DNA of 5,214 nucleotides, taken from positions 1 to 5,214 of the IMG/VR virus record IMGVR_UViG_3300045988_031142, one strand, 5' to 3'. This document shows, one piece after another, positions 318-5,214 of this stretch. This stretch comes from a virus. The translations under genes and the position numbers were made by a program. Every line of letters begins with the position of its first letter. Positions within the stretch are counted from its first letter, which is position 1. A model generated the notes under the pieces. That model was not told the origin of the DNA. It was given only the letters and a program-made list of their open reading frames with translations, and made no database searches.

Positions 318-337
318 GCACTCCTTGCCAAAATGGT

Positions 338-356
338 ATGCAGTTTCAGACTGCAT
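338..356. other. Short perfect hairpin: 7-bp stem, 5-nt loop.
   Basis: atgcagt (338-344) / ttcag loop / actgcat (350-356) are exact reverse complements. Confidence 0.5.
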
Positions 357-386
357 AAAATCTCGGCTGCCGTATCGCATGCCGAA

Positions 387-423
387 CTCGTGCCCATTAC
401 CTTCTTGATGTAATGGGCACGAG
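387..423. promoter_or_regulatory. Perfect 14-bp inverted repeat with a 9-nt loop in the intergenic region. Candidate origin of replication / Rep nick site, or complementary-strand origin or packaging signal.
   Basis: ctcgtgcccattac (387-400), loop cttcttgat (401-409), gtaatgggcacgag (410-423), exact reverse complements. The loop contains CTTGAT, which resembles the phiX174 gene-A nick-site core (…ACTTG^ATATTAAT…, recalled from memory). Confidence 0.45.
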
Positions 424-609: not shown

Positions 610-1575
610 GTGTCTTGTTTTCATCCTATGTTGGCAGTCAGCACTGGTTTAAATTCCAATGGCAAGCGTGATATCAAATTTGTTGCTGGCCCTACCGAGT
701 GGGAATCTTACCCGCCTAACGCTCGTCTAAAGATTCCTTGTGGTCGCTGTGTTGGTTGTCGCCTTGAGCGTTCCCGTCAATGGGCTAATCGTTGTATGTT
801 GGAATTGCAGTATCATGAGTCAAGTTACTTTGTCACGCTGACTTATGATGATGACCATGTCCCTGTGACGTATTATTCTGAGAATGATGATGGTGAAGCT
901 CGTAGTGGTCTAACGCTTCGTTCTCGTGATTTCCAGCTTTTTATGAAACGATTGCGAAAGGAACATTCATATGAGCGTCTACGCTTCTTTGCCTGTGGCG
1001 AGTATGGGTCTACTACTTATCGCCCTCATTATCACGCAATTATTTTTGGACTCACTATCGACGATTTGCGACCCTACAAACGTAGCCCCCAAAACTATGA
1101 TTATTTCATTAGTGATTCTCTTGCTAAGTGTTGGGGTCTCGGCTTTGTTGTGGTCGGTGCGGTAACGTGGGAAACTTGCGCCTACACTGCTCGTTATATT
1201 ATGAAAAAAGCCCTTGGTGAAGGTGCTGAGGTGTATGACCGCTTTAATATTGAACCTGAGTTTGTGCGGATGTCTCGTAAGCCTGGCATTGCTTATCAGT
1301 ATTACGCTGACCATCCTGATTTGTATCAGTATGAATATATCAATCTTCCGACCGATAAAGGCCAGCTGAAATTTCGCCCGCCTCGTTATTATGACCGCCT
1401 TTTTGATGTTGATAATCCCGAGCAGATGGCAAGGATAAAGGCAAAGCGCCAGCACGCCGCGTTGGTAGATGTTCATAACAAGTCTTTGCAAACGTCCCTT
1501 ATTGAGCCTGACCGTTTGGCAGTTGAAGAAGCTGCTTTGACGGCTCGCATAAAATCACTTGAAAGGAAGTTGTAA
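610..1575 (+). CDS. Replication initiator protein VP4 (rolling-circle HUH endonuclease; Microviridae gene A / VP4 family). GTG start.
   Basis: 321-aa ORF. The N-terminus MSCFHPMLA matches the conserved MxCxHP start of microvirus Rep proteins. Cys cluster CGRCVGC. HUH motif RPHYHAIIFGL. Catalytic tyrosine motif AYTARYIMKKAL. GAGGTG at 596-601 lies 8 nt upstream of GTG 610. An alternative ATG at 628 has no Shine-Dalgarno sequence and would delete the conserved N-terminus. Confidence 0.9.
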   Translation: MSCFHPMLAVSTGLNSNGKRDIKFVAGPTEWESYPPNARLKIPCGRCVGCRLERSRQWANRCMLELQYHESSYFVTLTYDDDHVPVTYYSENDDGEARSGLTLRSRDFQLFMKRLRKEHSYERLRFFACGEYGSTTYRPHYHAIIFGLTIDDLRPYKRSPQNYDYFISDSLAKCWGLGFVVVGAVTWETCAYTARYIMKKALGEGAEVYDRFNIEPEFVRMSRKPGIAYQYYADHPDLYQYEYINLPTDKGQLKFRPPRYYDRLFDVDNPEQMARIKAKRQHAALVDVHNKSLQTSLIEPDRLAVEEAALTARIKSLERKL

Positions 1576-2186: not shown

Positions 2187-2670
2187 TACTCAGTATACCC
2201 CGCATAATCGCATTGCCGCCAATGCTGGCTCACCCGTCAAGGTTCTTTACGGCGGTAAGTATGATGCTAACGGCCGTGTTGTGCTTGAGAAGAAAGGTGA
2301 AGAGAATCTATATGACTATATCCAGTCTTTTCGCGACTCGGTTGATCTCAACGTTATCCTCGCCCGCTTTACCAACGGCGATGTGGAAGCCCTTAATAAG
2401 GCTCAGGGCTTTTATGCAGACGTGACCGATTTTCCGAAGAATATGGCCGATGCTCTTAACCGTATCAATCAGGCCGAAGAGATGTTCAAGGCTCTTCCGC
2501 TCGAGACCCGGCAGAAGTTCGATTGTTCGTTTGAACAGTTTCTTGCTCAGTCTGGTACTGAGGATTGGTTGTCTAAGATGGGCTTTGAGACCTTTTCGCC
2601 GGTAGAGTCCGAGACCCCACCTGCGCCGGTTTTGCCTGATGCTGTAAAGGAGATCAAGAATGAATCGTAA
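2179..2670 (+). CDS. VP3 internal scaffolding protein (gokushovirus VP3 family).
   Basis: 163 aa starting MFDTQYTPHNRIAAN, with GAGGAG at 2161-2166 upstream. The region …LYDYIQSFRDSVDLNVILARF… resembles the conserved core of gokushovirus VP3. The ORF track starts the frame at ATG 2116, but that ATG has no Shine-Dalgarno sequence and the extra N-terminal codons do not follow the genome's T3 codon bias. Overlaps VP1 by 11 nt. Confidence 0.75.
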   Translation: MFDTQYTPHNRIAANAGSPVKVLYGGKYDANGRVVLEKKGEENLYDYIQSFRDSVDLNVILARFTNGDVEALNKAQGFYADVTDFPKNMADALNRINQAEEMFKALPLETRQKFDCSFEQFLAQSGTEDWLSKMGFETFSPVESETPPAPVLPDAVKEIKNES

Positions 2671-4327
2671 TGTTGAATCGCATTTTGCGCTGAATCCGAC
2701 TCGTATTGATATGTCCCGTTCGACGTTTGATCGTTCGGCCTCTGTCAAGACCTCTTTTAATGTCGGTGATATCGTCCCTTTTTTCCTCGAAGAGGTGCTT
2801 CCCGGCGATACGTTCAATGTACGTACTTCCAAAGTTGTGCGTATGCAGACCCTTCTAACGCCGATGATGGACAATCTCTACCTTGATTCGTACTTTTTCT
2901 TTGTTCCGAACCGTTTGGTTTGGAATCACTGGAAGGAGTTTAACGGTGAAAACACTGAAAGCGCGTGGATTCCTACGACGGAGTATTCTGTACCTCAGAT
3001 TACGTCGCCTTCCGCTGGTTGGTCTGTTGGTACTCTTGCCGATTATTTTGGCCTGCCTACAGGTGTCGGCGGTCTGAGTGTGTCCGCTTTGCCGTTCCGC
3101 GCTTATGCACTCGTTATGAACGAGTGGTTTCGCGATCAGAACTTGCAAGATCCGCTTGTTGTGCCGGTTGATGATGCTACGGTCGTTGGCGTCAATACCG
3201 GAAATTTCGTGACCGATTGTGCGAAAGGCGGTCTTCCTTATATCGCTGCCAAGTATCATGATTATTTTACGTCCTGCCTCCCCAGCCCGCAGAAAGGTCC
3301 TGATGTAACTCTTTCTGTTGCTTCTCAGGGTGATTTGCCGGTATACGCTGGTTCTCAGTCTATTTCGTCTGATTTTAATCAGACTTCGATGCGTATGACT
3401 GGTATTAATGGCTTAGGTGCTCAAGCTTCTAATATTATTCTTTCTGGCACTGGTAACGAGCGTGGTGTTGTTGCGTCTAATTTTACTGGTGGTGTTGGTG
3501 ATAGCAATTGGATTTTAGCTCCGTCTAATCTTTGGGCGCGAAATTCTGGCAATGCTATTATTGCTACTATTAACCAACTTCGTATGGCCTTTCAGATTCA
3601 GAAACTTTACGAGCGCGACGCGCGCGGCGGTACTCGTTATATCGAGGTTCTCAAGTCTCACTTCGGTGTGACTTCTCCTGATGCTCGTTTGCAGCGTCCC
3701 GAGTATCTCGGTGGTAACCGTGTTCCGATTAATGTGAATCAGGTAATCCAGCAGTCCGGCACTGGCGCCGGTGCTGATACTCCGCAGGGCACTGTTGTTG
3801 GTATGTCTCAGACTACGGATTCCAACCACGATTTTATGAAGTCGTTTACTGAGCATGGCTATATTATTGGTGTTATGGTCGCTCGTTATGATCATACCTA
3901 TCAGCAGGGTATTGAGCGTCATTGGTCTCGTAAGACGCGCTTTGATTACTATTGGCCGGTCTTCGCCAATATTGGCGAGCAGGCTGTGCTTAATAAGGAG
4001 ATTTTTGCGCAGGGTACCGCAAAGGATAATGAGGTTTTTGGCTATCAGGAAGCATGGTCTGATTACCGCTATAAGCCTAATCGCGTTACCGGTGAGATGC
4101 GTTCGGCCTATGAACAGTCTCTTGATGTCTGGCATTTGGCGGATGACTATGCGAGTCTTCCGTCACTGTCTGATAGTTGGATTCGTGAAGATAAGAATAC
4201 CGTTGACCGTGTTCTTGCAGTTAAGTCTTCTGTTTCTGACCAGCTTTTTGCGGATATCTATGTTTCCAATCGCGCCACGCGCCCGATGCCTATGTATTCT
4301 GTGCCCGGCCTTATTGACCATCACTAA
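2660..4327 (+). CDS. VP1 major capsid protein (Microviridae F / gokushovirus VP1 jelly-roll capsid protein).
   Basis: 555 aa. The N-terminus MNRNVESHFALNPTRIDMSRSTFDRS…FNVGDIVPFF.EEVLPGDTF is the characteristic gokushovirus VP1 start. AAGGAG at 2647-2652 lies 7 nt upstream. There is a long Ser/Gly/Asn-rich insertion (~nt 3300-3540), as in the gokushovirus threefold 'mushroom' loop. Confidence 0.92.
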   Translation: MNRNVESHFALNPTRIDMSRSTFDRSASVKTSFNVGDIVPFFLEEVLPGDTFNVRTSKVVRMQTLLTPMMDNLYLDSYFFFVPNRLVWNHWKEFNGENTESAWIPTTEYSVPQITSPSAGWSVGTLADYFGLPTGVGGLSVSALPFRAYALVMNEWFRDQNLQDPLVVPVDDATVVGVNTGNFVTDCAKGGLPYIAAKYHDYFTSCLPSPQKGPDVTLSVASQGDLPVYAGSQSISSDFNQTSMRMTGINGLGAQASNIILSGTGNERGVVASNFTGGVGDSNWILAPSNLWARNSGNAIIATINQLRMAFQIQKLYERDARGGTRYIEVLKSHFGVTSPDARLQRPEYLGGNRVPINVNQVIQQSGTGAGADTPQGTVVGMSQTTDSNHDFMKSFTEHGYIIGVMVARYDHTYQQGIERHWSRKTRFDYYWPVFANIGEQAVLNKEIFAQGTAKDNEVFGYQEAWSDYRYKPNRVTGEMRSAYEQSLDVWHLADDYASLPSLSDSWIREDKNTVDRVLAVKSSVSDQLFADIYVSNRATRPMPMYSVPGLIDHH

Positions 4328-4340
4328 ATATCATGTTATA

Positions 4341-4367
4341 GTGGGGGCTGTTGCCCCCACTTTTTTT
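4341..4367 (+). terminator. Intrinsic terminator / attenuator between VP1 and VP2.
   Basis: gtgggggc (4341-4348), loop tgtt, gcccccac (4353-4360): a perfect 8-bp GC stem. It is followed by TTTTTTT at 4361-4367, and then the VP2 ribosome-binding site AAGGAG at 4370-4375. Confidence 0.7.
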
Positions 4368-4381
4368 GAAAGGAGATTTAT

Positions 4382-5214
4382 ATGTCTGATTTTTCTGAAG
4401 CTTTAAACACTGGTGCCAATCAGATTGCTCATATGCAAGGCGTTGCACAGGCAAATAATGCATGGTCTGCCGGACAAGCTCAAATTCAGCGTGAATGGCA
4501 GGAGCAACAGAATGCTAAGGCTATGGCTTTTAACCAGAATGAGGCTGCTAAAAATCGTAACTGGCAGGAGATGCTTTCTAATACTGCTCATCAGCGTGAG
4601 GTGCGTGACCTTATGGCTGCTGGTCTTAATCCTGTGTTATCTGCCATGAATGGAAATGGCGCTTCTGTCGGCTCCGGCGCTACCGCTCAAGGTGTGACCT
4701 CGCAAGGTGCTAAAGGTGATACAGATACTTCCGCTAATGGCGCTATTGCTAATCTGCTTGGTTCTATCCTCTCTGCTCAGACCCAAATAGAGGCCGCTAA
4801 TATCAACGCTAAGACACAGGAAGCCGTTGCAGATAAGTATACTGCCATGGAGAAGATTGTTGCTGAGACTGCCGCTGCTGCTTCGCGTTATGGTGCTGAT
4901 ACTTCTTCCGCCGCTTCTCGCTATGGTGCTGATACCTCTGCCGCCGCTTCTCGCTATGGTGCTGATAAGTCTGCTTCTGCTTCTCGTTATCATTCTGATC
5001 GGAGTTATGAAGCTTCTCGTTATGGAAGTGATCGCGCTGCTATGGCATCTATGTTTGGTTCTTCTCAGATGGCTTCTGCATCTCGTTATGGTGCGGAACA
5101 GTCTCGTCTTGCTTCTCAGTATGCTTCTGACAAGGCTTATGCTGCATCCCGCTATGGTGCTGATAAGTCTTCTGCTGCATCCCGCTATGGTGCTGATAAG
5201 TCTTCTGCTGCATC
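4382..5214 (+). CDS. VP2 minor capsid / DNA pilot protein, 3'-truncated by the window edge. It continues at window position 56 (or equivalently 1) through to the stop at 174-176. Full length ~317 aa.
   Basis: ATG at 4382 is 6 nt after AAGGAG. The frame stays open to the window end (277 codons); the supplied ORF track lists only ORFs with an in-window stop, so it misses this one. N-terminus MSDFSEALNTGANQIAHMQGVAQANNAWSAGQAQIQREWQEQQNAKAMAFNQNEAAKNRNWQEMLSNTAHQREVRDLMAAGLNPVL: the Gln/Asn/Ala-rich helical region and the …LMAAGLNP… motif are typical of gokushovirus VP2. The position after VP1 is as expected. Confidence 0.85.
   Translation, partial: MSDFSEALNTGANQIAHMQGVAQANNAWSAGQAQIQREWQEQQNAKAMAFNQNEAAKNRNWQEMLSNTAHQREVRDLMAAGLNPVLSAMNGNGASVGSGATAQGVTSQGAKGDTDTSANGAIANLLGSILSAQTQIEAANINAKTQEAVADKYTAMEKIVAETAAAASRYGADTSSAASRYGADTSAAASRYGADKSASASRYHSDRSYEASRYGSDRAAMASMFGSSQMASASRYGAEQSRLASQYASDKAYAASRYGADKSSAASRYGADKSSAA
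4880..5214 (+). repeat. In-frame tandem array of a 33-bp (11-aa) unit, consensus A-S-R-Y-G-A-D-K/T-S-S-A. Ten units, continuing into window positions 1-98.
   Basis: Units read from the translation: SRYGADTSSAA, SRYGADTSAAA, SRYGADKSASA, SRYHSDRSYEA, SRYGSDRAAM…, SRYGAEQSRLA, SQYASDKAYAA, SRYGADKSSAA, SRYGADKSSAA, SRYGSDKSFDA. The last copies are identical at the nucleotide level (gctgataagtcttctgctgcatcccgctatggt at 5159-5191, again from 5192, and at 33-65). Confidence 0.9.

Follow-up and report, generated by a model that had tools for sequence, protein, structure and literature searches.

A conserved intergenic hairpin as the probable viral-strand replication origin of a gokushovirus

Described origins and the hairpin of the window

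The viral-strand origin of phiX174 reads CAACTTG^ATATTAATAACACTATAGACCAC and is cleaved by protein A between G4305 and A4306, with the rep_origin annotated at A4306. Nick sites of HUH Rep proteins that are presented in hairpin loops are well known as a kind, with examples in the stem-loops of geminiviruses and circoviruses and in plasmids of the pT181/pC194 type. For gokushoviruses, no description of an origin or hairpin was found in the searchable literature, which included large comparative studies, the provirus paper and the paper on Escherichia coli gokushoviruses; an early remark may exist in the original Chp2, phiMH2K and SpV4 papers. The element described here is a hairpin in the IMG/VR virus record IMGVR_UViG_3300045988_031142. 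The whole stretch of 5,214 nt that was analysed, referred to as the window, is a circular gokushovirus (Microviridae) genome of approximately 5159 nt, with 55 nt of overlap between the two ends of the stretch. The viral-strand (+) origin at which this gokushovirus starts rolling-circle replication is probably formed by the hairpin at 386-424 and a TGACACC box at 424-430, a reading to which a probability of about 0.72 is assigned. It is apparently a new, family-wide member of the known kind. An element of this kind is expected for an HUH Rep, so the finding fills a gap and overturns nothing.

The 5' arm ACTCGTGCCCATTAC (386-400, + strand) and the 3' arm GTAATGGGCACGAGT (410-424, +) are perfect 15-nt complements of each other (100% complementary). 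They enclose the 9-nt loop CTTCTTGAT (401-409, +), in which CTTGAT occupies 404-409. The original prediction, made from the window sequence, had described a 14-bp stem with a 9-nt loop holding CTTGAT. The hairpin, the loop size and the loop motif were recovered as described, and the stem was found to be 15 bp long, as A386 and T424 also pair. Folding of 380-430 as single-stranded DNA gave -17.3 kcal/mol, compared with -4.1 ± 1.7 kcal/mol in 200 dinucleotide shuffles (z = -7.9), none of which was as stable. The stem was also the longest inverted repeat of the whole window, with 15 bp against 7-11 bp for the longest perfect repeats in 100 mononucleotide shuffles of the genome. This agrees with the earlier statement that it is the strongest structure in the only sizeable non-coding region, given as 257-609. 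The gap was measured as 256-609 and extends from the stop of a 26-codon open reading frame (ORF) to the VP4 start at 610. A conserved block just 3' of the stem and at fixed spacing had been overlooked. This box, TGACACC (424-430, +), shares its first base with the last base of the stem and is proposed as the Rep-binding ('key') sequence.

The phiX174 origin sequence quoted in the original prediction was correct when compared with annotated phiX174. The protein A cleavage site has the same hexamer, CTTGAT, at positions -4 to +2, and the wider comparison of CTTCTTG^ATG in the window with CAACTTG^ATA in phiX gave seven matches in 10 positions with an identical CTTGAT core. The claimed resemblance of the loop to the phiX origin core held for this hexamer. 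It did not hold for GTAAT, which had been likened to ATTAAT and is the covarying top of the stem, not a conserved motif. The box lies at +17 to +23 from the predicted nick, where phiX carries AGACCAC, and four of the seven positions match without a gap (G, A and C at +18 to +20 and C at +23). The element shares with the 30-nt phiX174/Bullavirinae origin both CTTGAT across the cleavage position and these downstream bases, on the viral (coding) strand. The intervening parts differ, as phiX has an AT-rich spacer whereas positions +3 to +16 in gokushoviruses are G+C-rich, vary by lineage and form the covarying 3' arm of the stem. Over the whole phiX origin, only 18 of 30 positions match the window in an ungapped comparison.

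A bipartite consensus of 13 positions was defined as CTTGAT, a gap of 14-15 nt and TGACACC. It replaced a position matrix because the invariant GTAAT columns of that matrix stemmed from the search pattern. On the phiX genome, the true origin was in the top tie with 10/13, a score reached by 6 of 21,544 position/gap combinations. On the window, the hairpin was the unique site with 13/13 and the next best site scored 10/13. The phiX resemblance of the consensus is supportive but modest and partly post hoc; it carries weight because the matches coincide with the two blocks found invariant among gokushoviruses. The element is apparently homologous to the phiX origin, which is presented differently.

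The cognate enzymes are related as well. VP4 aligned with phiX174 protein A in BLASTP (E = 1e-5), with FVTLTYDD opposite FDTLTLADD and RPHYHAII opposite RLHFHAVH. Beyond the aligned segment, YTARYIMK in VP4 and YVAKYVNK in protein A follow the same Y-x3-Y-x2-K pattern, so that both proteins carry the TLT, HUH and Y-x3-Y motifs. A possible role in stabilising the DNA backbone, or in positioning the substrate close to the site of cleavage, is proposed for Thr202, Thr204 and Arg261 of protein A in a phiX mutagenesis preprint (doi 10.64898/2026.07.25.740675), and the equivalents of these residues were present in VP4 in the BLASTP alignment. Judged by these similarities, VP4 is an HUH rolling-circle replication initiator homologous to protein A. 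It presumably acts on the hairpin.

We infer that the hairpin is extruded and that Rep cleaves between G407 and A408. The inverted repeat would extrude or melt in the supercoiled double-stranded replicative form, which would leave CTTGAT single-stranded in the loop. VP4 would dock on the TGACACC box and the stem base and cut at G407/A408, whereby one of its two tyrosines would be joined to the 5' end and the 3'-OH would be extended by host polymerase. After one round, the second tyrosine would cut and join the regenerated site, and a circular viral strand would be released for packaging. Such an arrangement is like that of the HUH Rep hairpin origins of geminiviruses, circoviruses and pT181/pC194-type plasmids, with an inverted repeat, an invariant loop motif containing the predicted nick, an intergenic location beside or near the rep gene and one copy per genome. 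Unlike in geminiviruses and circoviruses, the gokushovirus loop is unrelated to the TAATATT^AC-type nonanucleotides, and the Rep is of the two-tyrosine phiX type. The fixed-distance 3' box is a further difference from other HUH Rep hairpin origins, as is the lack of iterons in a search by eye.

Conservation of the element among gokushoviruses

The 366-nt intergenic region was used as blastn query against 50,697 phage records and matched 77 of them. Beyond the few closest relatives, the match was confined to approximately 380-442 of the window, with 80-95% identity. Coding DNA of the same virus groups matched only in part of VP1, at 72-80%. No feature was annotated at the hairpin region in the matched phage records, save an occasional 'hypothetical protein'. 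A second set of 80 IMG/VR loci was picked on VP4 similarity alone (98% down to 52% identity). With a covariance model, the element was detected in 67 of these loci, each time on the strand that encodes VP4. Three of these matches were clipped by the contig start, and three more contigs stopped at or just short of the element.

The pattern CTTGATGTAAT-N8-12-TGACACC, which specifies the loop, the first part of the 3' arm and the 3' box but nothing of the 5' arm, was run on IMG/VR. Matches were obtained in at least 119 viral contigs, and almost all of these had the size of microviruses (4.1-5.5 kb). A hairpin enclosing CTTGAT was present in all listed matches except L137 and L158, chance matches in large contigs, and arguably L189. 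Among 121 unique versions, 111 had a length of 9 nt for the free spacer of the pattern and nine had 10 nt, with 8-12 nt allowed. Expressed as the distance from CTTGAT to TGACACC, the gap was 14 nt in 111/121 although 13-17 nt were allowed. The same pattern served as negative control in 596 Gb of bacterial genomes and gave 83 matches, about the chance number as estimated from the pattern size. Their spacers were scattered over 8-12 nt and hairpins were absent; the exceptions were two gokushovirus loci and one small replicon.

Around 100 distinct versions of the element share a loop that ends in CTTGAT, the TGACACC box and a paired stem. CTTGAT is invariant in the alignments while the preceding 2-8 loop bases vary; related forms are CTTGAC (L096) and CTTGTT (phiMH2K and SpV4). 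TGACAC was invariant and the last C at least 90% conserved in sequences that were collected with patterns specifying TGACAC or TGACACC. The box was also present in variants detected by the covariance model alone.

The stem sequence differs by lineage and still pairs, as in CTCGTGC/GCACGAG, CTCGGGC/GCCCGAG, CAGCC/GGCTG, TCCGGCCAATTAC/GTAATTGGCCGGA and CACAGTTAC/GTAACTGTG. GTAAT at the stem top was swapped for ATGATTG, CTAACTG or ATGTATG with a matching change on the opposite arm, and lineages with the whole stem replaced still hold CTTGAT and TGACACC. Covariation was measured on a MAFFT alignment of 121 sequences and on a model-fitted alignment of 97 sequences. In the latter, both sides had changed in 12 of 15 pairs, with 254 such cells compared with 96 ± 6.6 in shuffles. 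The covariation score of this alignment was 0.419, compared with 0.134 after shuffling and at most 0.091 when the partners were slid. Similarly strong stem covariation was obtained with the MAFFT alignment, which is not fitted to the structure. The covariation indicates that the inverted repeat is maintained by selection. Conservation in relatives had been named in the original prediction as the check for the hairpin and its loop, and the outcome was favourable: the hairpin is the sole conserved part of the intergenic region, its stem covaries and the CTTGAT of its loop is invariant.

A role at the level of RNA or transcription was considered for this structure, be it as an intrinsic terminator, an mRNA-stabilising or processing hairpin or a VP4 operator. 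In compact relatives, the element lies between the VP3 stop and the VP1 start and is therefore probably transcribed there, and intergenic hairpins of phiX are terminators. However, the pair changes are nearly all from Watson-Crick to Watson-Crick with few G-T intermediates, and the element shifts between the gaps upstream of VP4 and upstream of VP1. In the window, it sits between a terminator-like hairpin with a run of six T, 70 nt upstream, and the promoter-like site of VP4, approximately 90 nt downstream, and hence in a gap that is likely untranscribed. An RNA element is unlikely, and a role in RNA or transcription as a whole is very improbable. A scan of the whole window with the Rfam 15 covariance models gave no match at E ≤ 1. 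The specific reading as an intrinsic terminator was rejected: no T-run follows the stem on either strand (GACACCAAGAC on the + strand), the terminator scan did not call the hairpin and a separate terminator-like hairpin is present upstream.

The element was located on the VP1/VP4 strand in 172 of 176 microviral instances. In some lineages, including that of the window, it precedes VP4 by 130-750 nt, and in others it precedes VP1 by 75-250 nt; it is therefore a genome-level cis element and does not serve a single gene as regulator. Its location in the window is intergenic, and in relatives it occupies the gaps upstream of VP4 or VP1; the copy in L200 overlaps the end of an ORF on the opposite strand. 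A conserved, strand-specific cis element with one copy per genome could also be a packaging or procapsid-docking signal distinct from the nick site. Such a signal would not account for a loop motif identical to the site of Rep cleavage, and packaging in phiX174 is coupled to origin-bound protein A, not to a separate signal. Very little weight is given to this explanation.

Every microvirus needs a complementary-strand (-) origin, and hairpin-type priming signals are known from the PriA site of phiX174 and the hairpins of G4. The serious alternative among the rival explanations is that the gokushovirus hairpin is purely such an origin, read as a primer signal by the host primosome, primase or RNA polymerase, and that the Rep nick site is elsewhere. 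The PriA-bound hairpin of phiX174 between genes F and G is likewise a viral-strand intergenic hairpin, and in the compact 4.2-kb genomes with the element upstream of VP1 the hairpin is essentially the sole non-coding element. Intergenic hairpins with conserved loops and compensatory stem changes were also described in other small Microviridae, the reekeekee- and roodoodooviruses, and weighed as candidate (-) origins (Olo Ndela et al. 2022, PMC9865509). These hairpins, too, were identified by comparison alone; they belong to other clades, and that paper left their function open and drew no link to the phiX motif.

Several observations speak against a purely complementary-strand origin. What is invariant in the gokushovirus element is the sequence of the loop and the 3' flank, not the structure, and the loop motif is that of the phiX Rep cleavage site, with GAC at +18 in register. 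The phiX174 PriA hairpin differs in that a host protein reads the structure; it has no motif in common with the gokushovirus element and overlaps a terminator. The motif is held in prophages of E. coli and Sutterella and in phages of Chlamydia, Bdellovibrio and Spiroplasma, hosts that differ in their priming machineries. Conservation in phages of unrelated hosts that share a homologous Rep argues against a host-specific priming signal. The window also contains no other nick-like site of comparable score. Taken by itself, the complementary-strand reading is unlikely. A dual role as (+) and (-) origin, especially in compact genomes, is possible and compatible with a viral-strand origin at the hairpin.

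Other sequence features near the element were restricted to some clades. The search for iterons by eye gave no repeats common across clades; GCGAGCG repeats or CCAAGCGTGAGCGCGG occurred nearby in some of them, and the window had neither. The non-coding motif CCAAGCGTGAGCGCGG(T/C)(T/A)AGCG was found in several clades, approximately 40-60 nt upstream of the hairpin in L055, L072, L063 and L024 and approximately 10 nt downstream in L026, L056 and L073. It could be a complementary-strand origin or a Rep-binding site. IMG/VR contigs were broken in or beside the hairpin in L008 (end) and in L022, L032 and L071 (start), and L005 and L016 ended just upstream. The first bases of L032 were GATGTAAT, one base ahead of the predicted nick. 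These breaks are probably an assembler effect of the inverted repeat and not biological ends.

Cultured phages, prophages and the weight of the origin reading

Chp2, phiMH2K and SpV4 were analysed with a plain perfect-hairpin scan. ACTTG(A/T)T was present in the loop of the longest perfect hairpin in Chp2 and phiMH2K and of one of the two longest in SpV4. The Chp2 hairpin (2904-2941), between VP3 and ORF8, has a 14-bp stem, the longest in the genome, and the loop tctaCTTGAT, followed by gTGATAGC. In phiMH2K (3296-3335), the 11-bp stem is the longest in the genome; the loop ends in ctaCTTGTTgtaa, contains ctaCTTGTT and is followed by cacagaaac. The 10-bp stem in SpV4 (512-544) is joint longest, with the loop attaCTTGTTata including ttaCTTGTT and tTGACGAC thereafter. 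The position matrix derived from the metagenomic elements gave the top rank to the sites in phiMH2K (12.0 vs -14.0) and SpV4 (3.5 vs -12.9), and the bipartite consensus placed the Chp2 site first in its genome with 11/13. Matches of the covariance model were weak, with 10.8 bits in phiMH2K and 7.3 bits in SpV4, both at the right sites.

Two integrated gokushoviruses carried the element. The chromosome of E. coli C41 (NZ_CP127252.1) contains an enterogokushovirus prophage at 3020367-3024653 (L290 2472-6758), between fimA and hipA. Its element (L290 4083-4136) is located between VP3 and VP1, reads CCTGGCACAGT gccctaCTTGATgta ACTGTGCCAGG TGACACC and scored 51.9 bits. A VP1 match was present in 7 of 5426 complete E. 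coli genomes. The second was integrated in a 69-kb contig of an uncultured Sutterella sp. (UQUS01000004.1) at L207 2832-7634 on the - strand, with the order VP5, VP3, hairpin, VP1, VP2, VP4 and the element at L207 6785-6838, between VP3 and VP1. It adjoins host genes for an AAA-ATPase/PD-(D/E)XK protein and a dicarboxylate symporter, which suggests Sutterella as the host and a break point between VP4 and VP5.

Some gokushoviruses integrate at dif, as proposed for microvirus proviruses of Bacteroidetes and gokushovirus prophages of enterobacteria (PMC3091885, PMC7062461). A dif-like XerC/D attachment site would likewise be non-coding and resemble an imperfect palindrome. The architecture of the element is 15-9-15, not the 28-bp 11-6-11, and variable arms around a fixed loop are the reverse of a recombinase site. 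This explanation has next to no probability. The dif or attachment-site reading was rejected on the prophages: both E. coli C41 and Sutterella have an intact, internal element that lies between VP3 and VP1, at a distance from the boundaries with host genes.

One further copy with hairpin, CTTGAT, 9-nt spacer and TGACACC scored 53.7 bits and was located on a 5.5-kb unit (L276 6394-6446, +; L213 3970-4022). This unit is NZ_CP187533.1, 'plasmid unnamed1' of the cultured Ihubacter sp. rT4E-8, which was assembled as a partly duplicated 'plasmid' of 9.6 kb. It was 99.98% identical to a 5554-nt contig of a metagenome-assembled genome, and most of its ORFs are opposite to the strand of the element. 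None of them matched a microvirus capsid or Rep family, and a holin-like protein of 110 aa was the only one recognised. The unit may be an unknown small replicon or a phage that uses the same origin.

The earlier proposal of a Rep nick site and origin in the hairpin is thus supported by the conservation, the covariation, the invariant CTTGAT and the same design in Chp2, phiMH2K, SpV4 and the E. coli prophage. A number of points weigh against it. No cleavage was observed, and the support is comparative throughout. The phiX origin has no hairpin and lies inside gene A, which makes the analogy partial. With the full position matrix of the metagenomic elements, the phiX origin did not come first, and the covariance model gave no match there. 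The collection patterns fix CTTGAT and TGACACC, so the invariance of these blocks is unbiased only in the VP4-selected set and in the variants found by the model. Ten of the 80 VP4-selected loci had no element, most of which look incomplete. Two of 176 microviral genomes, L183 (4462-4514, +) and L200 (2443-2495, +), carry the element in antisense orientation relative to VP1, VP4 and every long ORF; possible reasons are an inversion in the assembly or nicking and packaging of the antisense strand by these phages. The identity of the 200-nt left and right flanks was compared in 1485 genome pairs; only three pairs were discordant, and recombination breakpoints were not seen in excess at the element. 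The 5.5-kb Ihubacter replicon carries the element and had no HUH Rep recognisable by Pfam, PHROGs or motif search. Finally, a stable intergenic hairpin on the gene strand, presumably the packaged one, could equally or additionally prime complementary-strand synthesis.

A more far-reaching and rather doubtful idea is that one bipartite origin design, consisting of ACTTG^(A/T)T in a hairpin loop and a TGAC-type box approximately 17 nt past the nick, was ancestral to all Microviridae and read by the homologous two-tyrosine Rep. In phiX-like phages, the hairpin would have been lost and the site shifted into gene A, with both blocks retained at their spacing. If this were true, the element would define the packaged strand, L183 and L200 would be the first microviruses that package the non-coding strand, and the origin may have been borrowed by small replicons that are unrelated, for example the Ihubacter element.

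Few single-stranded DNA phages are as abundant in gut and aquatic viromes as the gokushoviruses. A nick site defined as predicted for the viral-strand origin would provide a natural zero coordinate for thousands of circular genomes, explain the frequent assembly breaks at this place, and allow vectors consisting of origin plus Rep as well as in vitro nicking assays. It would also tie gokushovirus replication to fifty years of phiX174 biochemistry. The 54-nt covariance model can serve as a marker for gokushoviruses and their prophages and has already picked out the chromosomal elements of E. coli and Sutterella.

Genome context of the hairpin

All genes of the window are on the + strand. The nearest GenBank records were uncultured Microviridae from pig and human faeces. 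VP4, the Rep, is encoded at 610-1575 (+) and matched Pfam PF23343 (REP_ORF2-G2P) with E = 5.9e-19. It is followed by a basic ORF of 37 codons (1577-1690, +), known from its translation only, VP5 (1687-1935, +; PF20577), the scaffold protein VP3 (2116-2670, +; PF09675) and the capsid protein VP1 (2660-4327, +; PF02305). VP2 extends from 4382 across the ends of the window to 176 (+). It had no Pfam match and was named from its position and the annotation in relatives. The 26-codon hydrophobic ORF MYSLVLCLAMSVVAAVFYLVIKNLIR (176-255, +), likewise known from its translation only, has its start inside the VP2 stop codon. It could encode a small membrane or lysis peptide.

Along the single large non-coding gap, the order is a terminator-like hairpin with six T, an 8-bp hairpin, a small imperfect hairpin, the main hairpin and an AT-rich stretch with a promoter-like site. 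The terminator-like hairpin followed by TTTTTT (268-317, +) had an RNA fold of -21.9 kcal/mol (z = -2.9), and its sequence was kept in relatives down to 69% VP4 identity. As a terminator-like structure, it would close the upstream transcription unit of VP2 and the small ORF. The promoter-like site upstream of VP4 (512-540, +), TTGACA-17-TATGAT, matched the sigma-70 consensus in 11 of 12 positions, the best in the window, and is a consensus match only.

The second hairpin had been described as a perfect 7-bp structure at 338-356 that might be part of a complementary-strand origin or packaging signal. It exists, with an 8-bp stem at 337-357 (+) formed by TATGCAGT (337-344) and ACTGCATA (350-357) around the loop TTCAG. 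The proposed role found no comparative support: the hairpin was kept only at 94% VP4 identity or more, where it was cut to the 6 bp TATGCA/TGCATA without compensatory change, and it was gone at 69%.

The C-terminal third of VP2 (window 4880-5214 and 1-110) consists of tandem 11-residue repeats, SRYGADKSSAA and variants, with a period of 33 nt in the DNA. The 55-nt terminal overlap is located inside these repeats, so that the repeat number and the exact genome length of approximately 5159 nt are uncertain. A further hairpin resembling an intrinsic terminator is located right after VP1 at 4340-4361 and is followed by seven T (AGTGGGGGC tgtt GCCCCCACT TTTTTTT). A promoter-like site that precedes VP2 (4314-4342) overlaps with this hairpin.

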